From: Candidatus Falkowbacteria bacterium RIFOXYA2_FULL_47_19
Lineage (GTDB): Bacteria > Patescibacteriota > Patescibacteriia > Patescibacteriales > UBA12075
Length of the DNA stretch: 64,000 bases
Direction of reading: 5' to 3'
Assembly: GCA_001780275.1 (NCBI GenBank)
Contig: MFGB01000022.1
Location: forward strand, 1,249-65,248
Position numbers and translations under genes: made by a program. How positions within the stretch are numbered: the stretch's first letter is position 1; each line of letters starts with the position of its first letter. This document shows, one piece after another, positions 26,011 to 60,660 of the stretch. The notes beneath the pieces were generated by a model. That model ran no database searches and was not told where the DNA came from. It saw nothing but the letters and a program-made list of their open reading frames with translations.

Positions 26011-26478
26011 ATGGATTTAACGCTTAGTAAATTAAATTGGGAACTTAAACTGTTTTTTCTGGACACATCTAGCCGAGTGAGCGAAGAAAATTTATCTGAT
26101 TTACTGATCCCTGGAGAGGCGCGTGATTTTTTTATCGCGGTCTATGGTTGGGCACCTGGACTCTTTGGCGACAACGGGACATATTTGTGTGCTATTTTTT
26201 TTGAAAGATATGATAAAGTCCACTTCTCTTCAGGGGTGCATACTGTAAAGCGGGATTTCTGGATTTATTTAATCGAAAAAATTGAAAAATTACTGAAGAT
26301 AAATTGGGGAAATGCCGAACCGGGAAAAAGACAAGCGCTTGCCGAATGGATTTCCGAAAAAAAACGCACTCTCGAAATTTCGTTTCCGGACAAAAGATTG
26401 CCCGCTGTCGTTAACGCGCCCCCGAAAGACATTCGCGGAATAATTATAGAAGATATTCTGATAACTTTTGAGCAATAG
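26011..26478 (+). CDS. Hypothetical protein, paralog 1 of 3
   Basis: ORF track. It shares LLIPGExRDF.I.VYG..WAPGL.G, FSSGV, ALAEWI.EKKRTLEISF.DKRLPAVVNA.PK with 26510..26992. Confidence 0.7.
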   Translation: MDLTLSKLNWELKLFFLDTSSRVSEENLSDLLIPGEARDFFIAVYGWAPGLFGDNGTYLCAIFFERYDKVHFSSGVHTVKRDFWIYLIEKIEKLLKINWGNAEPGKRQALAEWISEKKRTLEISFPDKRLPAVVNAPPKDIRGIIIEDILITFEQ

Positions 26479-26509
26479 TTCGGCGCCAATAGCCTTAGGA
26501 GAAACGTAG

Positions 26510-26992
26510 ATGGACCTAACATTAAATAATAATCGCGGATTAACCTGGGAGTTAACCTCTTTTTTCCAGGACGAATCAAGCCGGGTAGGGGAAGAAAACC
26601 TTGCGGATCTGCTTATCCCGGGAGAAGGGCGTGATTTTTATATTAGAGTGTACGGCGAGCTTTGGGCACCCGGTCTTTACGGGGAGCAGGGCGTCTGCCT
26701 GTGCGCTTTTTCTTTCGGGGAAAAAAACGAGATCAAGTTCTCTTCAGGGGTTTATTCGATAAAACCGGATTTTTGGCCCTTTCTGCTCGAACACTTGGAA
26801 AATACGCTTGATAAGAATTGGGGCGAGATCGAATCAGAGAAAAAACGGGCGCTGGCCGAATGGATAACGGAAAAAAAACGCACTCTCGAAATTTCGTTTT
26901 CGGACAAAAGATTGCCCGCTGTCGTTAACGCGTCCCCGAAAAAAATTCACGGAATTATGATTGAAGATATTCTCATCACTTTTGAACAATAA
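26510..26992 (+). CDS. Hypothetical protein, paralog 2 of 3
   Basis: See paralog 1. The 3' block 26869-26932 is nearly identical to 26356-26418. Confidence 0.7.
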   Translation: MDLTLNNNRGLTWELTSFFQDESSRVGEENLADLLIPGEGRDFYIRVYGELWAPGLYGEQGVCLCAFSFGEKNEIKFSSGVYSIKPDFWPFLLEHLENTLDKNWGEIESEKKRALAEWITEKKRTLEISFSDKRLPAVVNASPKKIHGIMIEDILITFEQ

Positions 26993-31093: not shown

Positions 31094-31165
31094 GCTCTCG
31101 TAGTTCAATGGATAGAACACCAGCCTTCTAAGCTGGTTATCTAGGTTCGATTCCTAGCGAGAGCA
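31094..31165 (+). tRNA. tRNA-Arg (anticodon TCT)
   Basis: Acceptor GCTCTCG/CGAGAGC, anticodon arm CCAGC-CTTCTAA-GCTGG, T arm CTAGG-TTCGATT-CCTAG. CCA is not encoded. Confidence 0.9.
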
Positions 31166-31190
31166 CATCTTCTAAAAATAACATATTATT

Positions 31191-31724: not shown

Positions 31725-31929
31725 ATAAAAACATGGCTTTTGAAAAAATGTTAAATTTTTTTAAGCCGGGGACGATCGTCGCAGAGGACAAACGCGAAGA
31801 CATAGTTGCGCCAGAAAAGACGTCCGCCTTATAGCCGATGAGTTGTATAAATTAACGGAATATAAAGACGCGCGCGGAATAAATATGGACAAATATTAAA
31901 AGTTCTGCTACAATTTCATATTATATTAT

Positions 31930-32002
31930 GGTGGCTATAGTACAACGGTTAGTACATCGGGTTGTGGTCCCGGTGACGAGGGTTCGATTCCCTCTAGCCA
32001 CC
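31930..32002 (+). tRNA. tRNA-His (anticodon GTG) with encoded G-1
   Basis: G-1 plus acceptor GTGGCTA/TAGCCAC plus C73. Anticodon loop TTGTGGT. T arm GAGGG-TTCGATT-CCCTC. CCA is not encoded. Confidence 0.9.
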
Positions 32003-32028
32003 CTACATAAAATCGTCCCGAAAGGGAC
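31998..32028. repeat. Direct repeat DR1 (last 5 nt of tRNA-His plus the downstream hairpin)
   Basis: CCACCCTACATAAAATCGTCCCGAAAGGGAC, identical to 32956-32986. The hairpin CGTCCC-GAAA-GGGACG plus a T-run (32014-32036) also acts as the tRNA terminator. Confidence 0.9.
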
Positions 32029-32172
32029 GGTTTTTATTTGTCGCTTAGAGTATCTTTTCCACCTTCCTAGGTCAACCACATCATCTAAAAGAAAGGTTAC
32101 AGTACTAAATTTTTGCTGTGTATGTGTAAAATTGAGATTGCCATAAAAATATTGGCAGCATATAATTAAGAC

Positions 32173-32907
32173 ATGGAAATTTACTATCAACTATTAGAAA
32201 AATTAAGAACTATAGCCGAAAAAAGTCTAACCAATCACCCTGAGCCAAAAGAAGAAAAAGCGGGGTTATTGCTTTATGCGGTTGGCAAGGCAGATAAAAC
32301 ACTTTGTGCCATTGTTTTGTTGTGTCGTAATGGAATGGGCGAAGATGCCTTGATTTTATGTAGATCAATCTTCGAGATTTGTATTACAGTTGAATATATT
32401 TTTAAAGATCAAACTGATTATAGGGCTAAAAGATATTTTTCGTATGACTGGGTACAAAGAAAAAAGATGCTTGGTTATATAAGCACGGTTCCTCATATGA
32501 AAAAATATTTAACACCGGATAATCTTCAAATCGCAAATGACATAAAGAAGAACGCAAAAAAAGTTAACATGCTTTATAAGTATGGTTCTACGTGGTCCGA
32601 TAAAAGCATATATGAGATGGCTAGCGACGTAGGATTCTTAGATCTTTACCAAACAGCGTATAGAATTCAATGTAACTTAAGCCACTCAAACCCTAGATCA
32701 ATGAATGACTATTTTAAAGAAGAAAACGGTCATTTAATAATAAATTCGGGACCAAGCGACAATCTTGTGCAAGAAACACTTGTAACATCATTTCATTCTT
32801 ACTATTATATTCTTATGAAATTAAATAATTATTTTAAAAAAGGGCATGATACAGAACTTAGAGTGATAGAAAAAGAATTTATAAAAGCGTCAAATACCTC
32901 AATTTAG
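32173..32907 (+). CDS. Hypothetical protein (244 aa), single-gene cassette
   Basis: ORF track. AT-rich by eye. It reminds me of DUF5677-type proteins and has a possible Rx6H (RIQCNLSH). Both points are weak. Confidence 0.6.
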   Translation: MEIYYQLLEKLRTIAEKSLTNHPEPKEEKAGLLLYAVGKADKTLCAIVLLCRNGMGEDALILCRSIFEICITVEYIFKDQTDYRAKRYFSYDWVQRKKMLGYISTVPHMKKYLTPDNLQIANDIKKNAKKVNMLYKYGSTWSDKSIYEMASDVGFLDLYQTAYRIQCNLSHSNPRSMNDYFKEENGHLIINSGPSDNLVQETLVTSFHSYYYILMKLNNYFKKGHDTELRVIEKEFIKASNTSI

Positions 32908-32955
32908 TTTATTTACCAAATATTCCAAAAACAGTTTACCAAGCTTTTCGTTTAA

Positions 32956-32986
32956 CCACCCTACATAAAATCGTCCCGAAAGGGAC
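32956..32986. repeat. Direct repeat DR2
   Basis: An exact 31-nt copy of DR1, 49 nt after the cassette ORF stop. Confidence 0.9.
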
Positions 32987-33146
32987 TTTTTATATTTGGT
33001 TGGGGTTAGACTTTTACCCCACATACGATACGCTAACCGAAGGTTTGAATAAATATTTTCTAATTGGTATAATTTAAGCAAAGATTTCTTTTGGTCGTTT
33101 AGTTTTAACATCAAAAGCTTAAAAGCAGCTTATCTGCCAAAAAAAT

Positions 33147-34373
33147 ATGCCGGAACAATATAGCCCATATAAATTTTCAAATCTCCAGGAAAAAACCGGG
33201 GATAAGAAAGCGATAAATATCATATATCAAAACGAAAAACTCAAACTGCCTTTCAAGTTGGAAAATCTATCCTATTTCGTTGACCCGGCGGGGGAAACAG
33301 AATTAGCCAGCCATCCGCATCATCATCGCGCCGCCTGGCTGCCTGACACTGCGATTAGAGACGATCAGGGCAATATTTATTTCGAAACAACCATCAAGGG
33401 CTTGGGCTATCTCTATCCCGAAAGCTATCAAAGCAAGAAGGACAATTTTTACGGCCAGGATAATTCTGATATAACGGTACAAAGATCGGTGGAAGATCCC
33501 TGGGGATACAAAGTCCTGGGTTTATTTGATCGCCGCAACGTCTCCTCTTTAATTGAAAATATAAAAAAAATGAAACAAGCCGGACTGCGGTGCGAAGAAT
33601 TGGCTGGGGCTTTAGATTTAAAAAAGGTTTTGTTAGGCGGCGAGCCCGCCGATGCCGCTTTCCTGAAAAACTATCTGATCGATGAGGCTAAAAAACAAAA
33701 CTTCCCCCAAAAATATTTAGATGATCTCAAGGGCTTTGAACCGGCCTTGCTGATCCGGGTGTTGCGCGATAATACAAGAATACAGGATTTTTGTTCAGCC
33801 GCTATTGCGGAAAAGAGAGAAATTTTAACAGATGTTTTTAAGCGTCTTAATCTCGAAAATGAGTATGCGAAGAAAGAAACTCGATACGATATTAGCGATC
33901 CCGAGTCAATTAAAAAATATCTGGAAGATTTTTTTGCGCAGTCCGGAAAAAATTTAGCGATCATGCAGAATAACGGCGCCATGATGACCTATCTCAACTC
34001 CGGCAATATCACCTTATCATTGGGCGAGGTGGTAGATTTGGATTCCATTATTTTTCTTAATAAAGGTTTTTCCGCACATATTACTCCGGACGCGGCAAGC
34101 GGGATCCCTAAAGGCTTCAAAAAAGATATTCGCGATCAAATCTACGCCCTTGGCAAGATGTTCGCCAATGCCTTTGATGGCCTAATCCGGGTAGACGGTT
34201 CTCTGCGCGAGAAGCTAACAGCCGCTTTTCTCGACAATTACGGGAAAAATATTAATTCAGAAAAAATAGGACTATTAAAAATTGATCCGGATAAAGTTAA
34301 AAAAGTCGTGGCGGAATTCGCCGGCGATATGATCGCTCGAAACAGGAGCGTAGCGCCGATAAAATTAGCATAA
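33147..34373 (+). CDS. Hypothetical protein (408 aa)
   Basis: ORF track. An extended -10 TGGTATAAT sits at 33065-33073. Segments LNSGNITL and VVDLDS are weakly reminiscent of kinase-fold catalytic/DFG regions. Unverified. Confidence 0.6.
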   Translation: MPEQYSPYKFSNLQEKTGDKKAINIIYQNEKLKLPFKLENLSYFVDPAGETELASHPHHHRAAWLPDTAIRDDQGNIYFETTIKGLGYLYPESYQSKKDNFYGQDNSDITVQRSVEDPWGYKVLGLFDRRNVSSLIENIKKMKQAGLRCEELAGALDLKKVLLGGEPADAAFLKNYLIDEAKKQNFPQKYLDDLKGFEPALLIRVLRDNTRIQDFCSAAIAEKREILTDVFKRLNLENEYAKKETRYDISDPESIKKYLEDFFAQSGKNLAIMQNNGAMMTYLNSGNITLSLGEVVDLDSIIFLNKGFSAHITPDAASGIPKGFKKDIRDQIYALGKMFANAFDGLIRVDGSLREKLTAAFLDNYGKNINSEKIGLLKIDPDKVKKVVAEFAGDMIARNRSVAPIKLA

Positions 34374-34427
34374 ATAACTAGTTAAAATCTATGAGTACTA
34401 GCTTATGGATATTTATTTTTTAAAAAT

Positions 34428-37400
34428 ATGCCAAACCTTGAACAAAATTGGAATAGAGCGGAAATTAACAAAGTAGCCGGACAAGAAATGCTCGAGGGAG
34501 AGGAGGAGTATCGCCGGGAGGAATCAGGCAGGAAAGAATTTGGAAATAGGTATTGGAACGATGAAGATGTAGATTTAATGTACGGGAATGATCGAGACTT
34601 TGAGTCTGGATATGAAATGCATGAAATGATTTATGATAGAGAAATGCAAACGCTTGATGATTGCCTTAATCGCGGAAATTTTGACGGAGCGGAGCATATA
34701 CTGAAACATTATAAGGATGTTGAAAATATTATTTCAGTTCTAAAAAATGTTATTGTTAATTACGTATTTGTCTCTAAAGATCAGTATGAGTCATTTATTG
34801 CCGGACTAAGTGATTTTTTGAACCAGAACAAAATTTCAAAAAAGAAAAAATTGAATTTTTCCATAGCTAAATTCTTAAATTCTCCCGAGTTAGAAGAGCT
34901 TATTTGCGATCGGTGGAATGAGGATTATTACGATGATAGTGGAAATGATGATTATTATGATGATAATGAAAATGAGAACGCCACAATTGCGTCCGTCATA
35001 AAAAATCTAAATATTCCGGCGGCAAAAAAAGAAAAAATCGCCCTGAAAGTTGTAAAAGAGCAATTGATCAAAGGCAATATTCCCTACACCCGCAAATTAA
35101 AGGAAGATTTTCCAGTCCATTCTAAAGACTTTGATTTTAATGAAGTAGAAGATGCGGCCTTAAAAGGTTTAATAAACTTTTTGTCGGAAAATAATTTAAG
35201 AAGTATTGATAGAATAATAAAGTATTCTATAATATCCCCGGAAAAACTCGCGTCCCCGGATGTCATACAAGCCGCACTAACAGGCCTAATCAACTGTTTG
35301 TCGGCGGGCTATATTGATTGCGCCATCAATATTAAAGATTATTTCGCCCTACCACCGGAAAAATTAGAACAGGCCGCAGAAAACTGCCTCACGAAACACT
35401 TGCTAAATAATAATATTTATTATGCCATCGAAATTAAAGATAATTTCATTATTTCGCCGGAAAAACTTGCCTCCCCGGAAATAGAACAAGCTATTCTAAA
35501 CAACCTGGTTAAAAATTTATTAGAAGGCAATATTGATACTGCTATTAAAATTAAAGACAGTTTCGCCATTTCTGCGGAAAAACTCGCCACCCCGGAACTT
35601 GAACAAGCCGCGCTAAGCGGCCTAATTAAATGTTTGTCCGAAGGCTACGTTGATACCGCCATTAAGATAAAAAATAATTTCACTATTTCGCCGGAAAAAT
35701 TAGAACAAGCCGCGCTAAGCGGCCTAATCGACGATTTATCAAGGGGCTATATTGATCGTGCCTTTAAAATTAAAGACAGTTTCGCCATTTCCGCGGAAAA
35801 ACTCGCCACCCCGGAACTTGAACAAGCCGCGCTAAGCGGCCTAATTAAATGTTTGTCCGAAGGCCACATTAATAACGCCATTGAGATAAAAAATGATTTC
35901 ACAATTTCTCCGGAAAAACTGGAACAAGCGGCCCTTACCGGTCTAGCTCGCCAATTGTCAAAAGGCAATATTGAGACTGTCATGAGCATTAAAAATAATT
36001 TCTTGATTTCACCGGAAAAACTTGCCACCCCCGGGATTGAGAAAGCCGCTCTGCAGGCCATAATCAGTCAATTACTAGAAGGCTATATTAATGACGCCAT
36101 TAAAATTAAAGACAATTTCACAATTTCTCCGGAAAAACTAGAACAAGCCGCTATAACCTTCCTATGTGACCATTTATCAAAGGGCCATATTGATTATGCT
36201 ATTAAAATTAAAGACAATTTCACTATTTCGCCGGAAAAAATCCAGGAAGCTGACCAACCTGCTCTAAGCGCCATAATCAATGAATTACAAAAAAGCTGCG
36301 TTAGCAACGCTATTAAGATCAAGGATAAATTTAAAATTTCGCCGGAAAAACTCGCCACCCCGAAGGTTGAAAAAGCCGCTCTGCAAGACCTCACTGCTCA
36401 ATTATTGGCCGGCTATATTAAAGACGCCATCCATATTAAAAACAATTTCCCAGTTTCTCCGGAAAAACTAGAACAAGCCGCTTTGACCGGTTTAATCAAG
36501 CAATTGTCAAAAGGCCGCATTAGCGATGCTAGCACGATTAAAGACAATTTCCCTGTTTCGCCGGAAAAACTCGACTCCCCGGAAGTGGAACGAGCCGCTT
36601 TGACCGGTTTGATCAGTGAATTATCAAATGACCATGTTGATCGTGCCGTTAAAATAAAAAACTGTTTTCCAATTTCGCCGGAAAAACTAGATCTAGCCGC
36701 CATAGCCGAAATAACCAACAAATTATCAACTGGGCATATTGATTATGCCATCCAGATCAAAGATAATTTTATGATTTCGCCGAAAAAAATCGCCACCCCG
36801 GAAATTGAACAAGCGGCATTAACCGGCCTTATCAGACAATTGTCAAATGGTTATATTGAACACGCCGTCAGGTATAAAAATAATTTCACCATCGCGCCGG
36901 AAAATCTGGAGCAAACCGCTTTAACAAGTTTAATTGGTCATTTATCAAATGGAAAACTTGGATATGCCATTGACATTAAAAAAGATTTTACCCTTTCGCC
37001 GGAAAAACTCGCCTCCCCGGAAGTTGAACAAGCGGCTTTAACCAGCCTGGCTGACTGTTTGAGGGATGGACAAATTGAAAATGCTTTTAAAATAAGTGAA
37101 AATTTTCCTATTTCGCCGGAAAAACTGGAACAAGCCGCTCTAGCCGGCTTTAAACACCAATTATCCATTAACCGTATTACAAATGCCTTTTTGATTAAAA
37201 AAAATTTCACCATAGCGCCGGAAAAGATAGAACAGGCCGCTCTAGCCGGGCTAATAAACGGTTTGTCGGAAGGCGATACTTTTAACACAAGCAAAATTAA
37301 AGACAGCTTTACCATAGCGCCGGAAAAACTCGCCTCCCCGGAAGTTGAACAAGCCGCTCTAGCCGGCTTAACCAAGAGTTTACAGGAATGCCGTGTTAAT

Positions 37401-40067
37401 GACGCCATCAAGATCAAAGACGATTTCACCATAGAAAAAATCGCTTCCCCGGAAGTTGAACAGGCCGCTCTAGCCGGCCTGATCAAGAGTTTGCTCGATA
37501 GTTGTGTTCATGGCGCTATCATGATTAAAGACAATTTCAGCCTATCGCCGGAAAAACTCGTCTCCCCCGAGGTAGCGCATACCGCTCTAGCCAGCCTAAT
37601 CAATTGTTTGCGCGGAGACCATATTCATGATGCTATCATGATTAAAAAAAATTTCAGCCTATCGCCGGAAAATTTAGAACAAGCCGCCCTAACTATGTTT
37701 ATTCACCACTTGTCCGAAGGCCATGCTGATAGTGTTATCCAGATTAAACATAATTTCCCAATTTCCTCGGAAAACCTCAGCTCCCTAGAAACTGAACAAG
37801 CCGCTTTAAAAGGATTAACTATACTTTTATCATATGGAGATATTAATAAGGCCGTTATGATTAAAGATCATTTCGCCATTTCACCGGAAAAATTAGAGTA
37901 TGCCGCCTTAAAGGGTTTGATCGGTCGTTTATCAGAAGGCCATATCAATGACGCTCGGAAGATTGGAAATATATTTAATGTTTTAACTGAAGAAAAAATT
38001 CGAAATGCCTTTTTAAATCCCAGTCCTCAAAACAGAAAACTGATAGAATTTTTTGGCGCGATTACAAGCGAAGAAGAAAGAAAAAAAATGAGCCAAGAAC
38101 TGGGAATCAAAATGGAGGCCCTGCTTTATAACGGCTACGCAAAGTATAATAAAATTTCTTCCCGCAACGAAAGAAACGATCTTATACAGAACTTCACCCG
38201 AAAGATAAGCGAATCGATTGAATCCGGATCAGACACAAAAACATTTAACAAACTAGTCTCTATTATCAAGGAATTGGATAATCAGAGAAACAACGACGAG
38301 CAATCTACGGCGGATTTTCTTTTTGAAGTTTCCAAAAATATTTCCGGAAAACTGGATGATAAGCAATTTTTAATTTTAGTTCGAAAACTTTCGGAAATCA
38401 AGGATCAAAAAGCTAATTTTTTTGCTTTGCGCCTAGCGGGCCAGTCCCGGGTAAAACCGCTGGCATTCGCGCGTTCCATGCAAAAACTTTCGGATAATGG
38501 TTTTGTTCCAAAGGCGATCACTAAATTCATAGTTGAAGAAAAAGAAGAAAAAAAACAGCCTAGTCAAGAAAAGATCGCCGTTCTTCAGAAAATTATCAGT
38601 GAATACCCCAACCAATTTTCCACCATTATTTCAACCCTTTCGGACCCTAGGTTTGCCGATTTTGATCTGGCGGAAGAAAAAGAGTTGGTTTTTTCCAGCC
38701 TCAAGGATTTTAAAGCCGTCACGCCGATTATTTTCGAACGTTATCGTAATGCCGGCGAAGAAGGAAGAAAAAAACTGGTTGAAAAAATCAATCGAATTAA
38801 ACCGATATTATTCAAAAATCAATCAATAAAAAATATTCTTTCGGGCCAAGACCAGGAAATTTTCACTGAAATGATATACATCGCCTATAGTCCAGTAGGC
38901 ATGAGTTTTCAGGAAGTCGAAAATTTATTGGAACAAGTAGAGGATAGAACCCAAGATTTAGCGAAATTTAAATTTCCGGAAGACGGCTATGATTTTTCCT
39001 TTAACGACAAAACTAGATATCGTGTTAAACCGGGTGAAATGATTAATCCGCAAGTTTTAGATAAAGTTTCCGGTATTTTTTCCGGAACTTATCCTAAAAA
39101 TGAAGACGAGATCAAAAAGATATCAAGTGTTGTTGCAAAATTAGCCAAGGGGGGAACGGACCTGAAAGACTCCGAAATCACCGCTCTTCTTTCGCTGCTT
39201 TCCGAGGAAGGCCAAATTAAGGATTTTAAATCAAAAACCGCGAAAAACAAAGCCAACATCCGGTTATTTTTGGGAGAAGCTAAGGAAAATTTGGGTGTCT
39301 TTTTTAACGATAATTTTCCCAGATTACTTGAACAATTTTTATCGGCCAATCCGCAGTCTAAAGAAAAAATAGAAGCGATATTAGCTCATCCCGAAAGAGT
39401 GGACTTTATCAAAAATAAGATAGAGAAGCAGATCAAAGATAAAAATCTACAGATTGACTGGAATGATCCCAGCCAGATCGTTTCCGCCTATTTTTCGCTT
39501 TCCTGTTTAAAAAAAATAAAACAAGAAATATCAAAAGAAACTAAAAAATACGAATTAGCGCCGGAAGGAGAAGGTGAAAGATCGAAATTAACCGATTCCA
39601 GTTTCAGGGCTTATATTTCTAAAAACGTCGGTTCATTTTTCGCCAAGGCTTCAGCCGGAATTTGTACGGCGCAAGACGTATCGCTTTTCAACCGCAAAGA
39701 ACATTTTCATATTAACATTGTGGAAAACAGCGAAACTGTCCAGGCAAATATTCAGGCTTATATTATCAACTACCCGCCGGACAAAAAATCTCTTTTTTTA
39801 CGCGGCTTCAATCCAAATACGAAATTCATGAAAAACATCAGCATCCCGGTTTTTTGCGACAAGGTAATAGAGGTTGCTAAGAAATTTCAGCGCGACAACG
39901 GTTTGTCCGGTGTCTATCTTTCCGAACAATTGGGCAGTTGGCATGCTTTATCCAACCGATCGGAGGTGGCTGCTTATCTATCAAGATATTTAAAATCAGA
40001 TAACCAAAAAGACTTTTCGTATGCCATCACGAGCGCTCAGCGGATCAGCAAGATGTACGAAGTATAG
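34428..40067 (+). CDS. Giant repeat protein (1879 aa): acidic N-terminus, about 25 alternating 39/34-aa helical repeats, non-repetitive C-terminal domain of about 700 aa
   Basis: ORF track. Repeat consensus: ISPEKL(ASPEVE)QAALxGLIxxLSxGxIxxAIxIKxNFx. Confidence 0.85.
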   Translation: MPNLEQNWNRAEINKVAGQEMLEGEEEYRREESGRKEFGNRYWNDEDVDLMYGNDRDFESGYEMHEMIYDREMQTLDDCLNRGNFDGAEHILKHYKDVENIISVLKNVIVNYVFVSKDQYESFIAGLSDFLNQNKISKKKKLNFSIAKFLNSPELEELICDRWNEDYYDDSGNDDYYDDNENENATIASVIKNLNIPAAKKEKIALKVVKEQLIKGNIPYTRKLKEDFPVHSKDFDFNEVEDAALKGLINFLSENNLRSIDRIIKYSIISPEKLASPDVIQAALTGLINCLSAGYIDCAINIKDYFALPPEKLEQAAENCLTKHLLNNNIYYAIEIKDNFIISPEKLASPEIEQAILNNLVKNLLEGNIDTAIKIKDSFAISAEKLATPELEQAALSGLIKCLSEGYVDTAIKIKNNFTISPEKLEQAALSGLIDDLSRGYIDRAFKIKDSFAISAEKLATPELEQAALSGLIKCLSEGHINNAIEIKNDFTISPEKLEQAALTGLARQLSKGNIETVMSIKNNFLISPEKLATPGIEKAALQAIISQLLEGYINDAIKIKDNFTISPEKLEQAAITFLCDHLSKGHIDYAIKIKDNFTISPEKIQEADQPALSAIINELQKSCVSNAIKIKDKFKISPEKLATPKVEKAALQDLTAQLLAGYIKDAIHIKNNFPVSPEKLEQAALTGLIKQLSKGRISDASTIKDNFPVSPEKLDSPEVERAALTGLISELSNDHVDRAVKIKNCFPISPEKLDLAAIAEITNKLSTGHIDYAIQIKDNFMISPKKIATPEIEQAALTGLIRQLSNGYIEHAVRYKNNFTIAPENLEQTALTSLIGHLSNGKLGYAIDIKKDFTLSPEKLASPEVEQAALTSLADCLRDGQIENAFKISENFPISPEKLEQAALAGFKHQLSINRITNAFLIKKNFTIAPEKIEQAALAGLINGLSEGDTFNTSKIKDSFTIAPEKLASPEVEQAALAGLTKSLQECRVNDAIKIKDDFTIEKIASPEVEQAALAGLIKSLLDSCVHGAIMIKDNFSLSPEKLVSPEVAHTALASLINCLRGDHIHDAIMIKKNFSLSPENLEQAALTMFIHHLSEGHADSVIQIKHNFPISSENLSSLETEQAALKGLTILLSYGDINKAVMIKDHFAISPEKLEYAALKGLIGRLSEGHINDARKIGNIFNVLTEEKIRNAFLNPSPQNRKLIEFFGAITSEEERKKMSQELGIKMEALLYNGYAKYNKISSRNERNDLIQNFTRKISESIESGSDTKTFNKLVSIIKELDNQRNNDEQSTADFLFEVSKNISGKLDDKQFLILVRKLSEIKDQKANFFALRLAGQSRVKPLAFARSMQKLSDNGFVPKAITKFIVEEKEEKKQPSQEKIAVLQKIISEYPNQFSTIISTLSDPRFADFDLAEEKELVFSSLKDFKAVTPIIFERYRNAGEEGRKKLVEKINRIKPILFKNQSIKNILSGQDQEIFTEMIYIAYSPVGMSFQEVENLLEQVEDRTQDLAKFKFPEDGYDFSFNDKTRYRVKPGEMINPQVLDKVSGIFSGTYPKNEDEIKKISSVVAKLAKGGTDLKDSEITALLSLLSEEGQIKDFKSKTAKNKANIRLFLGEAKENLGVFFNDNFPRLLEQFLSANPQSKEKIEAILAHPERVDFIKNKIEKQIKDKNLQIDWNDPSQIVSAYFSLSCLKKIKQEISKETKKYELAPEGEGERSKLTDSSFRAYISKNVGSFFAKASAGICTAQDVSLFNRKEHFHINIVENSETVQANIQAYIINYPPDKKSLFLRGFNPNTKFMKNISIPVFCDKVIEVAKKFQRDNGLSGVYLSEQLGSWHALSNRSEVAAYLSRYLKSDNQKDFSYAITSAQRISKMYEV
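35230..37980 (+). repeat. Intragenic tandem repeat array (about 25 units, mean about 110 nt)
   Basis: Counted from the translation. A 99-nt block at 35547-35645 recurs at 35766-35864 with 1 mismatch (219-nt offset, which is one long plus one short unit). Confidence 0.9.
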
Positions 40068-40114
40068 CGGCATCGGCATTAAATCCACGCTCCTGGTTAG
40101 CCGCCGCATAATGG

Positions 40115-40138
40115 AAACCGCCCTTGAGGCGGTTTTTG
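40115..40138 (+). terminator. Rho-independent terminator of the giant repeat gene
   Basis: AAACCGCC-CTTGA-GGCGGTTT followed by TTG. Confidence 0.75.
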
Positions 40139-40240
40139 TTATGGGTGCGTAGAGGGCTTAAGAACCCTCCCTGATTATAGATAATAAAAACAACAAACGC
40201 TTTTAAATCCTCGCGAATTTTTACATGCGTAAGTTAATTT

Positions 40241-40283
40241 GAGGGTGTGGGGCTTCCGCCCCTTCGATTCCCTCTAGCCACCC
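40241..40283 (+). pseudogene. Orphan 3' fragment of tRNA-His (T-loop to discriminator)
   Basis: TTCGATTCCCTCTAGCCACCC (40263-40283) is identical to 31983-32003 (the last 20 nt of the tRNA plus the next base). It is preceded by GAGGG plus a GC hairpin TGTGGGGCTTCCGCCCC. Confidence 0.8.
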
Positions 40284-40397
40284 CATAAGTGCAAAAACGG
40301 ACTATGGCAGTTTTTTTTGTTTCGTATATACTTATAATTAGACGGTATCTTTTGTTATAATCATGTTAGATGTGTTCTTAATTCTAACAAATATTTT

Positions 40398-41168
40398 ATG
40401 AAAAAATCAAAAAAAATTGTTGCAATCGGCGGTGGTGAAATCGGCAGACCAGGTTACAAAATTGAAACTTTAAAAATTGACCAGGAAATAATTAAATTAG
40501 CCGGAAAGAAAAATCCAAAACTACTTTTTATTCCGACAGCCAGCGGCGATTCCGACGGTTATATTGAGGTTGTAAAAAAATATTTTGGTAAAAAATTAGG
40601 ATGTAAAATTTCTGTTCTCAAGCTGATTAATACCGATATTGCCTTTAAAGATATAGAAAAATTAATCTTCTCTGCTGACATAATATATGTAGGCGGAGGC
40701 AATACTTTGAAAATGCTGAAACTGTGGAGAAAGAAAGGCGTAGATAAATTATTAATAAGCGCATACAGTAAAGGAATAATTCTATCCGGCTTAAGCGCGG
40801 GGTCTGTGTGCTGGTTTAAATATGGGCAAAGCGACTCAAAAAAATTTAAAGATAAAAACGCTCCATATATTACTATATCCGGACTTAGTCTGGTCGACTC
40901 CCTGCACTGCCCTCATTATGACACTGAAATGGATAGACAGGCTGATCTAAAAAAGCGAATAAAAAAAATAAAAAAAGTTGCCATAGCTCTTGAAAATTGT
41001 TCGGCTATTGAAATTATCAATGATCAATATAAAATAGTCACTTCAAAGCCTAAGGCCAATGCTTTTAAAATTTATTGGCACAAAAATAAATTTTATAAAA
41101 TTAAACTTGAAAAAAATAAGCTTTTTCCGATAGAGACTTTACTCAAAAAAACTACACTTCAATTTTAA
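40398..41168 (+). CDS. Peptidase S51 (dipeptidase E / cyanophycinase-like) family protein
   Basis: IVAIGGGEIG, LLFIPTASGDS, IIYVGGGNT, and a nucleophile elbow GLSAGS. Confidence 0.75.
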   Translation: MKKSKKIVAIGGGEIGRPGYKIETLKIDQEIIKLAGKKNPKLLFIPTASGDSDGYIEVVKKYFGKKLGCKISVLKLINTDIAFKDIEKLIFSADIIYVGGGNTLKMLKLWRKKGVDKLLISAYSKGIILSGLSAGSVCWFKYGQSDSKKFKDKNAPYITISGLSLVDSLHCPHYDTEMDRQADLKKRIKKIKKVAIALENCSAIEIINDQYKIVTSKPKANAFKIYWHKNKFYKIKLEKNKLFPIETLLKKTTLQF

Positions 41169-41206
41169 AGAACTCGGTTCGTACTTCTTCCGCTAAACTG
41201 CCCAAA

Positions 41207-41240
41207 ATAAAAATCGTCCCGAAGGGGACGGTTTTTTATT
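41207..41240. repeat. Third copy of the tRNA-His-proximal hairpin (DR3-like), a bidirectional terminator
   Basis: ATAAAAATCGTCCCGAAGGGGACGGTTTTTTATT, compared with DR1 ATAAAATCGTCCCGAAAGGGACGGTTTTTATTT. Confidence 0.7.
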
Positions 41241-41260
41241 GTTAAGTATGGAACATAATG

Positions 41261-42001
41261 TTAACCGATGCTATCCCACATAATCCCAAACATCTCGCGA
41301 TGCAGTCGGATGATGTTTTTGTTTTCGATGACCATGACCATGATAGGCGGAACGACGTGGTGGATCAATAGTTTGTGCGGAGTGATCGTAAGCGAGGCGG
41401 ACAAAATCGCCTCGTTTTTTAATATCCTTATTTCCATGTTATTGGCTTTTTCCTGTTTTTTATATTCACGCGCGATCTCGGAATCCTGGAGCAGTAGCTT
41501 GTTATTGAGCCTCATCTTCGCTCTTCTTTTAACGAAGCCCTCGAACCATTTTCTGTCCGACGACATCCATTTGGCTGAATCGCTGATCACGAAATAATCC
41601 TCCCGCACCTTCATTTCAGCGAGCAATTCTTCGTGGATGTTTTTAACGGCTTCAATCCCTTCAAAATATTTAATTATTCCCCCATCACCCTCCATATTAT
41701 AGAGTGCGGTAAAATCAGGCAAGCTTTTTTTCAGGACCTGCCTTTTTTGTTCCAGTATCTTCTCCAGTTTCGCCGGGTTTTCCGCCACATAATACATTTT
41801 CCAACCTTTTTGCTCTATCCTCATAAGGCCTTTGGCGATCAAAGACTCCGCGATTGAATAAACCGTGGGTCTTTTTAGGTCACCGGCTTTGGCGATCTTG
41901 AGGATCGTGGTCTGGCCAAGCGAAAGCGAGCTCAAATAAACTTTGGCTTCATTTTCGCTTAAGCCTAAATTCGTGAGTACTTTAAATAATTTATTGTCCA
42001 C
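41261..42001 (-). CDS. TrmB-family transcriptional regulator
   Basis: N-terminal wHTH LGLSENEAKVYLSSLSLGQTTILKIAKAGDLKRPTVYSIAESLIAKGLM. Confidence 0.75.
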   Translation of the reverse strand: MDNKLFKVLTNLGLSENEAKVYLSSLSLGQTTILKIAKAGDLKRPTVYSIAESLIAKGLMRIEQKGWKMYYVAENPAKLEKILEQKRQVLKKSLPDFTALYNMEGDGGIIKYFEGIEAVKNIHEELLAEMKVREDYFVISDSAKWMSSDRKWFEGFVKRRAKMRLNNKLLLQDSEIAREYKKQEKANNMEIRILKNEAILSASLTITPHKLLIHHVVPPIMVMVIENKNIIRLHREMFGIMWDSIG

Positions 42002-42164
42002 TTATTTTGATATTAGCGATTTTAGTATAAAAATATGTCATTTTGGTATATCTGGGCAAGTTTTGCTAAAATATAGATAAAAACCGAAAATAAATTAAAA
42101 TGTCAGAAAAACCAACAACTATTTTTATTTTAATATAAAATAAAAATAAATACAAATTTAATTA

Positions 42165-42183
42165 CTGTCAACAAATATGACAG
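42165..42183. promoter_or_regulatory. Inverted repeat CTGTCA-N7-TGACAG in a divergent promoter region
   Basis: Perfect 6-bp arms. Further ATGTCA half-sites sit near 42035 and 42100. Confidence 0.4.
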
Positions 42184-42279
42184 AAATACAATAGTTTAGT
42201 ATAGTATAGATAATAAAATAAAACAAGGTCCTTACAACCAAATAATCAAAAACCCGAAAAGTGTAAAGGAGATAAAGAG

Positions 42280-42789
42280 ATGAATAATTTTAAAGAAAAG
42301 ATTGAAAAATTGATTGATGTTGAGAATACCTTACGACACGTGTTTTCTTTTCCTGATCCCAAATACAGATTAAACTTTAACCATCTCCGTTTTGGCGCAC
42401 TCCGTACCGATGATGATGAAAAAATGATGAAGGAAGCAATAAATATCTTGAAATCGACCGGAAAGAAATATTATCTGGCGATTACCTACCAATATAATGA
42501 TCCTACTCGCATCGAAGTTTATTTTCATCTTCCCAAACTCACCTTTCGTTTATCTGATGAATGGATAGAAGGATGTTTGCTGATTCGAGGATATTTTAAA
42601 GATCCTAAGGTTTTATCAGGAGAAATTAGTACAGCCGTCTTAATAGATACGTTCACAATCGATGACAAGCCGAAACTAAACCAGGACCCCGGAGAGCACT
42701 ACGGTCCAGTGGGTTATCAAGGTCTAAAACCACACAGGAGTAAGGAGGAAAAAAACTTTATCCGCAAGCTTGAAATCTATCAAATTTAA
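42280..42789 (+). CDS. Hypothetical protein (169 aa)
   Basis: AAAGGAG lies 8 nt upstream of the ATG. No motif recognised. Confidence 0.6.
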   Translation: MNNFKEKIEKLIDVENTLRHVFSFPDPKYRLNFNHLRFGALRTDDDEKMMKEAINILKSTGKKYYLAITYQYNDPTRIEVYFHLPKLTFRLSDEWIEGCLLIRGYFKDPKVLSGEISTAVLIDTFTIDDKPKLNQDPGEHYGPVGYQGLKPHRSKEEKNFIRKLEIYQI

Positions 42790-42943
42790 GTCGTCTTCGG
42801 CAAAATGCCTCGCTAAAGGCTTGCGAGGATAAATAAAAAGTCTTCAATAAGCTTCGAGCCATGGTCTGTAAACATGGCTCTTTTTTATTCGGTACACAAT
42901 TATTTTACGGCCGTGCGCACACTTTTTATTTTTACCGCTCTAT

Positions 42944-44437
42944 TTATTTCTTTACCGCTTCGATCTCTTTTATGATCTGGCCGGCCAGATGGTCCATGTC
43001 GCGCCGCAGGGCTTTCGCGTAGTCCCGGTTTGCCCGGATATCTTCGATCATTTTTAAAAATGAGTCCATATCCTCTTTAAGGGAAATATATAAATTTCTG
43101 TACGCGGAAACACATTCGGATATACTTTGATAATCATCGTGAAAAAGGTCGTAATCGTCGGGCTCTATTGCCTGGCCTTGTTTCCGCGCCGTAATAAGAG
43201 ACCTGCACCACTGAACACTGATTTCTTTCAAGACGAAAACGACAGCCTCATATTCCTCGATTATTTTAGTCGCCTCTTCCCGCGCCGCCCTCATTTCTTC
43301 TTCCGTTTTGATTCCGCCTTTCCTGATTTTATCCGGAAAGATTTCCATATTTTGCCTTATCCGCCGAACAAGATCGTTTAAGGGAAAAATTTTCCCGGAA
43401 TATTCCTTGGCCAGCTTCTTTGCCGCAAGCAACTTCCGGACCAGTTCTTCATTTTTGTTGCGGGCGGCGGACTGTTTCGGCGAATAATCATCTTTTCCGC
43501 AGTCATGAAGAGCCGCGTCGAATTTTTCCTGATATTTTTCCAAGTCAGAGAGTTTTTCCATCTCCTGAAGGGCTTCCAGAATGTCGCCTCGCATTTCCAG
43601 CGCGTCGTCGGAATGATTCAGCCACTCCGCCAGATCCTCCATATACAAAGGAACCTGGGATTTAAGTCTTTCTTCCGTATTGGGCCTCGCCAGCAAATTA
43701 TTGTTATCGCCGTATTTTTCATCCGTAACTCCTGTCCGGCCGTTGGCGCTCGGTTCGCGCTTTTCGCTAAACAAGGCTCCCATGGCGTTCATACTGCCCG
43801 GGCGCCAGGAAAAACCGGCGCGGAAATCTTCGCTCTCATCGTCGTCATCGATCTCGTCAAAGAAAAATATTTTTATCTTTTCCGTTTCTAAAATCTCTCC
43901 GACAGCCGTTTCGGCCAGCTTCAAGGACTCGCCGGTATTTTTTATGTCATCAACGATCATAATGTTTTTGCCCCGAAGATCTCTCCATTGTTCTTTGAGC
44001 CGGAGAAAATCCGGCGTGTTTTTCAGCTCTTCGACAATTTTCTTAACCGACCTTCCGCCTCTTTTTTCCGATCCTATATTTATATACTTCATTAACGGCA
44101 CGCTTTTATCGTCTAAAACACGCTTCGCCACCCGGGAAAGCACCCAGGAAAGCGACCGGGCCGCCTTGTCCAGAAATACGCAGGCGTCTATCCGGTTCTT
44201 CTTGATGCTCGCGAGGGCCTCCTTGACTTTAGCCTTTATAAGCGCGGGCTCATGTTGGACGAGCGTCTCATATCGGATGAGATCTTCCATATTCTCCCCC
44301 TGAAATTCATCAAGTTCTTGTTCGTATATCCCGGCCGCGTCGCGCCAATCTTCGGGCTTAGAGATATCAGAATCTTCGAGGTCTTGCCTGACGTGTTCCC
44401 GGGGGCTTATAAGTTGGGCGAATTTTCTTTCGCTCAT
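42944..44437 (-). CDS. Phosphoribosyltransferase-domain protein with a long helical C-terminal region (497 aa)
   Basis: PRPP-binding loop GKNIMIVDDIKNTGESL, followed by an acidic stretch DEIDDDDESED. Confidence 0.6.
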   Translation of the reverse strand: MSERKFAQLISPREHVRQDLEDSDISKPEDWRDAAGIYEQELDEFQGENMEDLIRYETLVQHEPALIKAKVKEALASIKKNRIDACVFLDKAARSLSWVLSRVAKRVLDDKSVPLMKYINIGSEKRGGRSVKKIVEELKNTPDFLRLKEQWRDLRGKNIMIVDDIKNTGESLKLAETAVGEILETEKIKIFFFDEIDDDDESEDFRAGFSWRPGSMNAMGALFSEKREPSANGRTGVTDEKYGDNNNLLARPNTEERLKSQVPLYMEDLAEWLNHSDDALEMRGDILEALQEMEKLSDLEKYQEKFDAALHDCGKDDYSPKQSAARNKNEELVRKLLAAKKLAKEYSGKIFPLNDLVRRIRQNMEIFPDKIRKGGIKTEEEMRAAREEATKIIEEYEAVVFVLKEISVQWCRSLITARKQGQAIEPDDYDLFHDDYQSISECVSAYRNLYISLKEDMDSFLKMIEDIRANRDYAKALRRDMDHLAGQIIKEIEAVKK

Positions 44438-44759
44438 TTTGTTTTATGGTAAATATTTATATATAAATTATATCTGAAACTGCCGTTAAAATCAAAAAAG
44501 AACGTGCGCCGCGACAGTAATCGATCAAAGACCCCTCGCGACCGGAAACCGGACAATTCAAGGAACAAATTAACATATTAAAGAAGTATTTATAATTACG
44601 GGAATGATCGATCACGAACAAAGACAATAAGAATAATTGTTATAACCGGCCCCGAGCGCTCCTCGTTGCAAAGCCGAAAAATTTGCTATTCAGCGTTGCA
44701 GATTTCCTAAAATTATATTATAACGAAGTTAATTCCAAAAAAATTCGCAATTTAACAAC

Positions 44760-45602
44760 TTGAAAGTGGCGCAATTCATGAAAATGCACAAATATACGAT
44801 CAGGAACGCGCATGACCTTAGAAAAATAGCGCACCGAAGCGGTCGCTTAGGTTTCGAGAGAAAGCCCGCCTTATTGGAAAAAAACAGACGATTAGGACTT
44901 TTTGACATGCAAACGGCCATGCGGATATATTTAATCCGTAAGATTGTTAAGTTTCTTTACCGAAAAACCGGTAAATTTTTGAAAATCCTTGAATGCGGCA
45001 GCGCGGGTGATGTTTCCTGCGCCTTAGCATTACCGGGAGCCAGGGTGTATGGATTGGATATTGATTATAAAATCTTCGCCAATGAAGTTAACTGTATACC
45101 GGTCGGCGTCTGGAAAATCACAAAAGCAAAAAGACAGGTAGCATACTACGGCCAAACTAATGAAACTCATTTGGATTTTGTAAAAAAAATTCTTCCGAAT
45201 TACGGGAGGATCATCGGCGATTACGAAAAATTGCCGTTTCCCGATGAAAGCTTAGACGTGGGCTTAACGCAAGGAACTCCAGACCTGCTCTCGGATTCTA
45301 TTTTTGAGCTTTTTAGAGTAATACGAAGCGGCGGATATATAATCAATATTATTCATGAACAAATATATCCTGATCAAAAACCTTTTCTATCGTTTTATGA
45401 TACCGGCAATTATCAACATGGAAGTTGTTGGGACGAGTACGGGGCTCTTAATCCTCAAAAATATGGATTGCGGTTGAAAAAAATTGATATTCCGTCGGAA
45501 TTTAAAGAATTAGAAAGACTCAAGTCCTGGTATTCAAACTATGATTTTCATGAACAAAGAAAAGTAAATTCAGGGTTCATATTCGAGGTATTCCAAAAAT
45601 AA
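44760..45602 (+). CDS. SAM-dependent methyltransferase-like protein
   Basis: ILECGSAGDVSCALALPGARVYGLDID (motifs I/II). The start is uncertain; the internal M at MQTAMRIY is possible. Confidence 0.55.
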   Translation: MKVAQFMKMHKYTIRNAHDLRKIAHRSGRLGFERKPALLEKNRRLGLFDMQTAMRIYLIRKIVKFLYRKTGKFLKILECGSAGDVSCALALPGARVYGLDIDYKIFANEVNCIPVGVWKITKAKRQVAYYGQTNETHLDFVKKILPNYGRIIGDYEKLPFPDESLDVGLTQGTPDLLSDSIFELFRVIRSGGYIINIIHEQIYPDQKPFLSFYDTGNYQHGSCWDEYGALNPQKYGLRLKKIDIPSEFKELERLKSWYSNYDFHEQRKVNSGFIFEVFQK

Positions 45603-45617
45603 AAAAGGAGCGGCAAA

Positions 45618-45926
45618 ATGAATTATAAATTACCGGCAGACATCGAAAAAGCATTGCAGTCCGAAAGGGTGGACTCGTATATTTTAAATGACGTATACCG
45701 TCAAATTGAAGAAAAAGAAAAAGAAAAACAGGTGATCGATCTTTCGAAAATTATAATAAACTGTCTTGTTAAAGTAAAAAGAAAAAATATCCGGCTAGCA
45801 GGAAAAATCAACTCACGAATAGGAAATTCACGAATAGGTAGTTTTTGCACTCTGCAGACATCTCTGAATAAATTTCCCGACGTCGTAAACCACCCTTCCG
45901 TAATATATATTGCAGCATCAAGATAA
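45618..45926 (+). CDS. Hypothetical protein (102 aa)
   Basis: AAGGAG lies upstream. It contains a 15-nt tandem duplication (SRIGNSRIG, 45813-45840). Confidence 0.5.
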   Translation: MNYKLPADIEKALQSERVDSYILNDVYRQIEEKEKEKQVIDLSKIIINCLVKVKRKNIRLAGKINSRIGNSRIGSFCTLQTSLNKFPDVVNHPSVIYIAASR

Positions 45927-46204
45927 TAACCAACCAATAATCAAAGTATGTTTAAAAAACATACTTTTTTAATTATATTTCTTAAAACAGTAAGCCGGCC
46001 TTTTAGGCTTAAGGGGACTTTCTCGGGTTCGTTTTTTTATATAAACAAAAACACGTATTTAAACGTGTTATTTTATTGACTTTATTTAAACGGTTTGGTA
46101 TTATAAAGAACTTACGGATAGTGTTCGCGAATGTCAAAAACAAGGGGCGGCAATGGGATCGGTGACCAAAAAACAACAAGATTGTTTTTAAATTCTATCA
46201 GCCG

Positions 46205-46441
46205 ATGGAGGGAAAGATGATGAATATAGAGTGGAAAAAATATTTTGCCTGGATCCTTTTTTTAATGGGAACAGTGTCTGTCGGTAATATGCTTATCAAT
46301 TATACCGCTGGCGACTCCAACGTGCTGTTAATTACCGTCCTCGCGGATCCGACCGCGGAGAATGTCATGGAATTATTCTTTACCTTGTTGTGGCTTGCTA
46401 TGATGGCGCTCTTTTTCCGTACTTGGTATAAATGGAAATAA
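46205..46441 (+). CDS. Small 2-TM membrane protein
   Basis: A GGAGGGAAAG Shine-Dalgarno sequence. The true start is probably the ATG at 46217 or 46220. Confidence 0.55.
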   Translation: MEGKMMNIEWKKYFAWILFLMGTVSVGNMLINYTAGDSNVLLITVLADPTAENVMELFFTLLWLAMMALFFRTWYKWK

Positions 46442-46468
46442 ACAAAGCAACGGGGGTTCGGACTTAAA

Positions 46469-46768
46469 ATGGATGAAAAACTCGAGAGAGGAAGAGAAGG
46501 TTTTTTCGCGGCCTGCCGCGCGCAAGGCGCCTATGGCCTTGAAGACATACTAATACTCGTAAAAGAGAAAAAGATTCCGAAAGACGTGATAGAAAAAGCC
46601 GTCTTGGCCGGATTCGGCGGACCTTGCCTCTGGAACGCTTACCGAGCTTATTACGACGAACTCGATGAAGCCGCCAAAGCCTTGATCGATCGCAATGCCG
46701 GCCGCGATGAAGCGGTCGTAAGTTTCAAAAAAGAAGAGCTCTTTTTCTCGATTTACCGGAGCAAGTGA
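46469..46768 (+). CDS. Hypothetical protein (99 aa)
   Basis: ORF track only. Confidence 0.5.
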   Translation: MDEKLERGREGFFAACRAQGAYGLEDILILVKEKKIPKDVIEKAVLAGFGGPCLWNAYRAYYDELDEAAKALIDRNAGRDEAVVSFKKEELFFSIYRSK

Positions 46769-60566: not shown

Positions 60567-60632
60567 AATAACGTATATTGGATATTAAATATCAGCTAGC
60601 TGAAATATTTTGCGCGGAAAATTACATCCGTT

Positions 60633-60660
60633 GCGCAATATCCAATATCTAATATCCAAT
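60633..60660. repeat. 7-nt-phased repeat GCGCAATATCCAATATCTAATATCCAAT (copy 2 of 2)
   Basis: Identical to 5214-5241. It overlaps the last codons and the stop (60649-60651) of the GH1 gene. Confidence 0.95.

Follow-up and report, generated by a model that had tools for sequence, protein, structure and literature searches.

Islands built by successive insertions at a tRNA gene, with partial tRNA copies left behind as scars, are already known. In Prochlorococcus, successive integrations at tRNA islands push the older elements inward and leave scattered partial tRNAs (Hackl et al., 10.1101/2020.12.28.424599). Here we describe a comparable locus on contig MFGB01000022.1 of Candidatus Falkowbacteria bacterium RIFOXYA2_FULL_47_19, a member of the Patescibacteriota. 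Coordinates refer to the window, which is the whole stretch of 64,000 nucleotides (nt) that was analysed. The region from 32.0 to about 45.9 kb starts at the 3′ end of a tRNA-His gene, differs in composition from its surroundings, carries partial copies of the tRNA 3′ end at its internal boundaries and encodes no recombinase. On balance, we read it as a decayed, accreted island anchored at tRNA-His and made by a recombinase that is encoded elsewhere or has since been lost.

The anchor is a tRNA-His(GTG) gene on the plus strand. ARAGORN places it at 31931-32003 and Rfam (RF00005, 66.4 bits) at 31931-32002; its G-1 is at 31930. The island directly adjoins this gene, which remains intact. Boundary block 1 (31988-32040, plus strand) contains the tRNA 3′ end, the trailer TACATAAAAT, the terminator hairpin CGTCCC-GAAA-GGGACG and a T-run. 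A preliminary description of this DNA had reported an exact direct repeat of 31 nt (31998-32028 and 32956-32986) bracketing 927 bp with a single open reading frame (ORF; 32173-32907), and this was confirmed. Similarity around the repeat reaches 53 nt at 87% (repeat family D17). The second copy lies in boundary block 2 (32946-33030, plus strand), which comprises a decayed part of the T-stem (TTTCGTTTAA), CCACCC, the trailer and hairpin of block 1 (exact over the 31 nt) and a pseudo T-arm half. The hairpin had been assigned to both copies of the repeat. It is intact in the first, but the second lacks the closing G (GGGACt) and has a stem of 5 bp. The pseudo T-arm 5′ half (GGGGTTAGACTTTTAC, 33002-33017), which follows the second copy, had been missed.

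Further tRNA copies lie downstream. As had been described, the 21-nt segment of tRNA-His from the T-loop to the 3′ end recurs exactly at 40263-40283, with GAGGG (40241-40245) and then the hairpin GGGGC-TTCC-GCCCC (40249-40262) on its 5′ side. Together these elements form a split T-arm copy (40241-40283, plus strand) that reads GAGGG, TG, the hairpin, TTCGATTCCCTCTAGCCACCC (21 of 21 nt identical to the tRNA) and then the trailer CAT. On its upstream side, 3′ of a gene for an 1879-amino-acid (aa) protein, a terminator hairpin with a T-run was read in the sequence (AAACCGCCC-TTGA-GGCGGTTT, 40115-40138, plus strand). It is followed by an inverted tRNA-His-like T-arm and 3′ end (40143-40169; GAGGG-TTCTTAAG-CCCTC-TACGCACCC on the minus strand), a feature absent from the preliminary description. 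This inverted copy (40143-40156) could pair with the direct copy at 40270-40283 in 12 of 14 positions. The third near-copy of the hairpin block was also found as claimed, after an S51 peptidase gene (41189-41241, 70% identity over 53 nt, one mismatch in the hairpin). It belongs to boundary block 3 (41176-41240, plus strand), which consists of a previously overlooked remnant, GGTTCG...CTAAACTGCCC (41176-41203), then AAAATAAAAAT, the hairpin CGTCCC-GAAG-GGGACG and a T-run. The tRNA 3′ repeats at the far boundaries are the exact copy at 40263-40283 and two decayed copies at 32953-32961 and 41176-41203. The partial copies begin within the T-arm, several of them in the T-loop, and run as far as the tRNA 3′ end. 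According to Williams in 2002, this segment is reportedly the usual identity block of integrases with a crossover in the T-loop.

Chance does not account for such copies. About 3e-8 exact 21-mer copies and about 4e-10 exact 31-mer pairs would be expected in the window. The hairpin 15-mer (CGTCCC-GAAA-GGGAC, up to two mismatches) occurs three times in 64 kb against 0.2 expected, and all three occurrences are within the array. It had been considered that this hairpin might simply be the commonest terminator of the genome; its confinement to the array shows that it is not a common terminator within the 64-kb window. The base composition of the region is also distinct. Its AT-richness, earlier judged by eye, is borne out by a GC content of 0.39 for 32004-45926 versus 0.47-0.48 on both sides. 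The mean GC content at third codon positions (GC3) is 0.40 in island genes versus 0.56 in the others (Mann-Whitney p=4e-4), with values of 0.28 for the DUF5677 gene, 0.28 for the S51 gene, 0.39 for the 1879-aa gene and 0.46 for the 408-aa gene.

No integrase, excisionase, resolvase or transposase domain was found in the ORFs of 32.0-45.9 kb by searches of Pfam, PADLOC, PHROGs and NCBIfam, in agreement with the preliminary description, and searches of Pfam, NCBIfam and PHROGs found no primase or helicase module in the island. Among the window ORFs scanned, the sole transposase-like gene is an IS200-type Y1 gene (4181-4885, minus strand), 27 kb away. Perfect palindromes of 15-16 bp (AAGCCACYCGGTGGC...) are located inside this gene and just past it, at 4137-4172 and 4617-4652. 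The arms of the AAGCCACYCGGTGGC palindrome resemble the acceptor-stem strands of tRNA-His (AGCCACC / GGTGGCT), maybe by coincidence. These palindromes are unrelated to the hairpins of the units, and TTTAC before the hairpin was seen only in units of the type found in the related genome L019.

L019, also entered as L113, is a Falkowbacteria metagenome-assembled genome (JAZDLN010000048.1) and the sole species representative matched when a genome collection was scanned with the tRNA-His 45-mer; a metagenome scan with the methyltransferase upstream of the array gave distant relatives only. The flanks of its locus show about 90% nt identity to the window. In L019, tRNA-His is followed by a pair of cargo-less units (about 115 nt each), then by a Fic gene, a decayed remnant and a tiny ORF, and then by one more unit and the S51 gene. 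After S51 come a decayed block with a CGTCCCC..GGGGGC hairpin and the start of an IS30-type gene at the contig end. The DUF5677, 408-aa and 1879-aa genes are lacking, and there are more copies of CCCTCTAGCCACCC than in the window. Five further core copies are clear (three exact, one with one mismatch and one shortened to CTAGCCACCC), besides decayed remnants. At the contig end (positions 1-94), the first 31 residues of the IS30-type gene match HTH_38 before the contig breaks. HTH_38 is an N-terminal domain typical of IS30-family transposases.

A second relative, L114, has a methyltransferase 75% identical to that of the window and a tRNA-His identical over the 45 nt compared. Three small unrelated ORFs (about 2 kb) lie 3′ of its tRNA-His, followed by homologues of window 45875-46760. 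Since the sequence of L114 meets that of the window again at 45.9 kb, the variable region spans 32.0-45.9 kb and does not end at 41.2 kb as first proposed. More distant relatives keep the order tRNA-Arg, methyltransferase and tRNA-His, without repeats and with unrelated downstream genes. None of the relatives combined an identical gene order with the absence of both repeats and empty sites. The comparison of relatives suggested earlier thus revealed the expected differences in content (L019 and L114), but no exact empty junction.

Within the window, the genes upstream of the array are the methyltransferase, tRNA-Arg and thioredoxin-like genes. A short ORF at 31734-31835 is what remains of a 265-aa gene, which L019 has in intact form (3043-3840); compared with L019, the window carries a deletion of about 650 nt between the methyltransferase and tRNA-His. 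Elsewhere, at 26011-26992, two adjacent paralogous genes (155 and 160 aa) contain DNA repeats 70-77% identical (D4, D18), where L019 has a single homologous region.

The S51 gene has a history of its own. Its position is conserved in two related species (92% amino acid identity in L019, 77% in L121), with flanking remnants in both, and boundary block 3 is orthologous to the blocks 3′ of S51 in these two genomes. Decayed remnants thus surround the unit in three species, and Patescibacteria very commonly have a peptidase E of this type. Therefore, the S51 unit is old and vertically inherited, and the term "cassette" in the preliminary description does not suit it.

The trailers of the tRNA copies bear on the order of events. 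The trailer CAT follows the copy at 40263 (40263-40286 including the trailer), the intact tRNA-His of L114 and one copy in L019. Indeed, the 40263 copy with its trailer is identical to the L114 tRNA end and trailer at 24 of 24 nt. The working tRNA-His genes of the window and L019 have other trailers, each common to the units next to it. Such a pattern would be expected from incoming DNA that takes the place of the tRNA 3′ end and displaces the old end downstream. The partial copies thus behave like displaced 3′ ends, and the shared CAT, an ancestral-type trailer, hints at the ancestral junction. We infer site-specific recombination as the inserting mechanism. In the proposed course of events, DNA would have been inserted repeatedly at the T-loop-to-3′-end part of the tRNA-His gene, and every insertion would bring a new 3′ end and terminator for the tRNA. 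The former 3′ end, trailer and terminator would be pushed downstream and persist as the partial tRNA copies that mark the boundaries. Local duplication of a boundary module of about 100 nt may have added copies. The inserting recombinase would not be encoded in the island, and the inserted elements may have lost their mobility genes or never had any.

This boundary module is evident when the blocks from the window and L019 are compared, because they align as a single unit of about 100 nt: the tRNA 3′ end, an A-rich trailer, the terminator hairpin, a T-run and GG-GGGTTCGATTTTTAC (a T-arm 5′ half plus TTTAC). In L019 the module is followed by a hairpin and the next CCCTCTAGCCACCC, and in the window (3′ of copy 2) by the 408-aa and 1879-aa genes. 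Besides tRNA-His, ARAGORN called tRNA-Arg(TCT) at 31094-31166 and tRNA-Ser(CGA) at 54207-54296 (minus strand), in agreement with Rfam. At the latter, three tandem cargo-less units of 62 nt (54020-54227, minus strand; repeat family D9), not noticed before, each consist of A-GGTTC, two GC hairpins and the last 20 nt of the tRNA. They are 98-100% identical, and the final tRNA-Ser copy is slightly diverged and followed by a terminator. D9 and the block alignment indicate that some of the repeats are local tandem duplications of the boundary module and not separate integrations.

A degenerate 3′ part resembling tRNA-Ser(CGA) was also observed on the minus strand at 54560-54700. Downstream of it come the gene of a small GIY-YIG nuclease, with a true start at about 54549, and then the intact tRNA-Ser. 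The degenerate part retains an anticodon arm and a long variable arm, and its T-arm is interrupted after GGGTTC by a pair of GC hairpins, whose stems are flipped relative to those of the tandem units. The idea that it represents a tRNA gene interrupted by hairpins was rejected, as ARAGORN made no call even with the hairpins deleted.

Alternatively, duplication might account for all copies. In such a scenario no site-specific recombination occurred, and local duplication by slippage or unequal crossing-over, together with homologous recombination anchored on the tRNA and repeat blocks, produced the array. The near-identity of the tandem tRNA-Ser units, the two nearly identical tandem units of about 115 nt in L019, the embedding of the 31-nt exact repeat in 53 nt of similarity, as duplicated blocks would be, and the conserved flanks (tRNA-His and S51) around different inner content all agree with it. 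However, it leaves unexplained why copies at three different tRNAs start in the T-arm and stop exactly at the 3′ end, why successive copies are followed by different trailers, why the cargo has a foreign composition and why a hairpin is common to different tRNAs and genera. We consider duplication as the sole cause improbable.

Units were also found at tRNA-Arg(TCT) in related genomes. In L113 (9628-9767), L108 (9747-9933) and L111 (2556-2739), the tRNA is followed by a terminator and then by a cargo-less unit (67-110 nt), at the end of which the tRNA 3′ end is present a second time. L109 has the same kind of unit (1605-1790), but its acceptor copy is decayed. The window's own tRNA-Arg has no such unit. 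The hairpin 15-mer TGGGGCTTCCGCCCC beside the tRNA-Arg copies in L108 and L109 is identical to window 40248-40262, which lies beside the tRNA-His copy, and the methyltransferases of the genomes sharing TGGGGCTTCCGCCCC at tRNA-Arg are only 47-49% identical to that of the window. Across L108, L109 and L111, a 33-nt junction (the hairpin, GGTGA and the T-loop/T-stem copy) is 88-97% identical, versus 59-76% for the terminator, 60-66% for the left part of the unit and 54-60% for the next 100 nt. Both hairpin changes in L111 compensate each other (one compensatory pair in 28). This argument from conservation covers these three related genomes and the window. Several units can fold into a long stem with two inner hairpins by means of a partly decayed upstream sequence complementary to the tRNA 3′ end.

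These junctions suggest another explanation, in which the hairpin and partial tRNA, paired in some units with an inverted copy upstream, form a structured site for a recombinase encoded elsewhere in the genome and acting in trans, and the array is a working cassette system without its own integrase. Cassettes and cargo-less units would then be inserted, excised and exchanged at tRNA 3′ ends, and the junction would function much as the integron attC does, or the folded attP of elements that borrow host Xer recombinases. Such a system would agree with the lack of a recombinase in the about three modules of the window, the about six units of L019 and the units at tRNA-Arg and tRNA-Ser. It would also agree with the conserved 33-nt junction and its one compensatory change amid drifting surroundings, and with the 15-nt hairpin common to the tRNA-His copy of the window and tRNA-Arg copies in distant genomes. 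Most copies still match the tRNA perfectly, and inverted upstream copies occur in both the window (40143-40156) and L019 (GGTGGCGCTAG). In addition, the DUF5677 cassette and a different cassette of L019 have right ends that share 81% identity over 53 nt. Comparison of the right end of the L019 Fic cassette with window 40068-40350 gave nothing significant beyond the core (score 26, versus a shuffle mean of 18 and maximum of 34).

Several observations speak against a working system. Population contigs, collected by exact-protein look-ups with the DUF5677, 237-aa, 408-aa and S51 proteins, were all collinear with the window at 99.6-100% identity, and no polymorphism, circle, empty site or other trace of excision was seen among them. 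The array is fixed in the sampled population. The DUF5677 and 408-aa genes have their own promoter-like sites, unlike integron cassettes, and the S51 unit is old and decaying. No inverted partner exists in His units 1 and 2 of L019 or in the tRNA-Ser units. The covariation is thin, with its one compensatory pair and three to five independent examples, and no candidate recombinase was identified in the window or in the relatives' fragments. We regard a cassette system working in trans as rather unlikely. The preliminary description offered serial cassettes mobilised in trans or a decayed island as its two readings. The locus is indeed tRNA-anchored, compositionally foreign and integrase-less, and its content differs between related genomes. 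The absence of polymorphism in the sampled population, the antiquity of the S51 unit and the partly tandem origin of the repetition all limit the reading of mobilisation in trans. The decayed island fits better, though the conserved hairpin at the tRNA junction leaves some probability to current mobilisation in trans.

The collinear long contigs came from separate ENA, NCBI and JGI records with identical gene order, so the arrangement is not a misassembly. Short Logan contigs starting at the 31-nt repeat (L129 and L130, both from 32957) were attributed to an assembly break at the repeat and not to biology.

The decayed island also has its own difficulties, and the following points weigh against it. 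No recombinase or fragment of one was found in any module of the window or of the L019 array. No viral contig carries the tRNA-His core beside an integrase. In viral contig searches, the 21-nt tRNA-His copy had no match in IMG/VR, the 14-nt core and the motif GGGTTCGATTTTTAC gave only chance matches or unrelated tRNA-His genes, and the pattern of hairpin plus T-loop gave no match. No precise empty site, circular junction or presence/absence polymorphism was present in the population contigs fetched. The near-identical tandem units at tRNA-Ser and in L019 indicate that duplication also builds arrays. A dead scar should drift, yet the 33-nt junction has been kept while its neighbours drifted, and a simple attR scar predicts no GC hairpin splitting the T-arm halves. 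A dead scar explains neither the lack of recombinase remnants in the arrays and units nor the GC hairpin that abuts partial tRNA copies, sits inside their T-arm and is conserved, with one compensatory change, across distant Patescibacteria and different tRNAs.

It is conceivable, though doubtful, that Patescibacteria carry an undescribed class of tRNA-derived recombination sites, in which a conserved GC hairpin is fused to, or splits, a partial T-arm and 3′ end. A trans-acting recombinase may serve these sites, and the window array, the tRNA-Ser units and the tRNA-Arg units may all be instances of the class.

Alternatively, the units may be functional RNAs derived from the tRNA trailer, either minihelices of acceptor and T-arm or a hairpin with a guide-like tail of 18-21 nt, with the turnover of genes being incidental. 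In the fold of the tRNA-Arg units (z-scores of -2.1 to -4.5), a long stem closes around two inner hairpins, with G-U pairs on the sense strand, and the piece composed of hairpin and tail is conserved. However, no Rfam family matched the units, the closing stem is lacking in the L019 His units and the tRNA-Ser units, and the upstream strand resembles a decaying complement, not a maintained one. No gene for an RNA-guided nuclease was found in the window, where the Y1 gene is the lone transposase-like gene among the ORFs scanned. An RNA function is therefore very improbable.

The cargo is varied. The first gene (32173-32907, plus strand) encodes a DUF5677 protein of 244 aa (PF18928, E=5e-35). A promoter scan placed promoter-like sites before it (32138-32166) and before the 408-aa gene (33045-33073). 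No viral relative of DUF5677 was found. Its homologues occupy defence-island-like contexts, and in one distant genome (L118) the gene lies directly 3′ of tRNA-His, where a three-gene module of DUF4236, an unnamed gene and DUF5677 comes right after tRNA-Arg and tRNA-His without repeats. Homologues 65-72% identical (L115, L118, L120) usually occur in a module of DUF4236, a protein of about 207 aa and DUF5677. The module neighbours are conflict-system genes (SMEK_N/CTD10, MC6, DUF2326, a reverse transcriptase with PRTase-CE, and SLFN_AlbA_2). This context suggests a defence-related role of the DUF5677 module.

The second cargo consists of two genes. The 408-aa protein (33147-34373, plus strand) belongs to a rare family of 112 clusters among 1.84 billion representatives and had no match in Pfam, NCBIfam, PHROGs or PADLOC. 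The family has invariant K, H..N and DLD motif columns and weak profile matches to Bud32/TP53RK, SelO and Lck, so that a kinase-like fold is likely from its sequence. A single-sequence structure model was unusable (predicted local distance difference test score 34). The idea that the protein is a hidden recombinase was rejected on the basis of the family motifs and the weak PDB profile matches. The adjacent gene (34428-40067, plus strand) encodes the 1879-aa protein, whose translation contains about 25 tandem helical repeats of about 36-37 aa (DNA repeat families D1-D3) and, C-terminally, a large domain of unknown function; the protein matched no PDB or Pfam family. The third cargo is the S51 peptidase, similar to peptidase E (40398-41168, plus strand; PF03575, E=7e-48). 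The rest of the variable region (41261-45926) encodes a TrmB-like helix-turn-helix protein (minus strand), a 169-aa protein, a 497-aa phosphoribosyltransferase (PRTase)-like protein (minus strand), a 280-aa methyltransferase and a 102-aa protein. No tRNA copies were recognised there, and its composition is mixed, the TrmB-like and PRTase-like genes being core-like. Beside the ends of large genes elsewhere in the window, a 42-nt repeat (TTAYAYCCGTWGCGCAATATCCAATATCTAATATCCAAT.TC, 90% identical) is present at 5203-5244 and 60622-60663.

Gene acquisition and exchange in the small genomes of the candidate phyla radiation (CPR)/Patescibacteria are poorly understood. As the present locus shows, these bacteria too can have a fast-changing island seeded by a tRNA gene. 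Its cargo looks conflict-related or accessory, with DUF5677, Fic (in L019) and a kinase-like gene accompanied by a giant repeat protein. The conserved junction between the hairpin and the tRNA copy provides a simple sequence marker for finding such sites, and the recombinase, across thousands of metagenome-assembled genomes. If tRNA-derived sites of this kind are real, they would provide a means of gene capture to organisms that have few classical mobile elements. Should there be no active system, the locus is an ordinary decayed island.

Known systems share different parts of this anatomy. According to Val in 2005, CTX phage is said to integrate by means of the host XerCD at dif with a folded attP. 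Like such elements, the units encode no integrase, and an inverted target-like pair about 50-110 nt apart could fold like the target. Here, however, the target is the 3′ end of a tRNA, a dif-like 28-bp site is lacking, several units have no inverted partner and no evidence for single-stranded intermediates was found. Integrons likewise have ordered small gene units, structured and partly palindromic separating sites and no recombinase inside the cassettes. In contrast to integrons, no IntI gene or attI adjoins the array, which begins at a tRNA gene. The sites are tRNA-derived and do not follow the attC consensus, an inverted core partner exists only in some units, promoter-like sites precede the DUF5677 and 408-aa genes, and the units have terminators.

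Cis-mobilisable elements (CIMEs) and their accretion-mobilisation at tRNA genes in Streptococcus were reportedly described by Pavlovic in 2004, Bellanger in 2011 and Puymège in 2013. As in CIMEs, att-type direct repeats of the tRNA 3′ end bound segments that lack integrase and transfer genes and stand in tandem with other elements. However, CIMEs have a related integrative and conjugative element that supplies the integrase, and their excision has been shown, whereas neither a helper nor an excision product was found here; the smallest units here are 62-120 nt. Compared with an integrase-mediated tRNA island in general, the locus has the intact tRNA, the direct repeat of its 3′ end and the distinct composition, but no integrase at its end.

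A further comparison is with the tycheposon islands of Prochlorococcus (10.1101/2020.12.28.424599). Tycheposons carry a tyrosine recombinase and their islands hold integrase fragments (10.1101/2020.12.28.424599), whereas neither is present in the arrays of the window and L019. Of the features that define tycheposons, the partial tRNA flanks are present here, but recombinase, primase and helicase modules were not found. The partial tRNAs here are also split by GC hairpins, and short cargo-less units stand in tandem. Nevertheless, both kinds of island lie next to a tRNA gene, with successive integrations at the same tRNA and scattered partial tRNAs, and both reside in a streamlined host genome with few classical mobile elements (10.1101/2020.12.28.424599).

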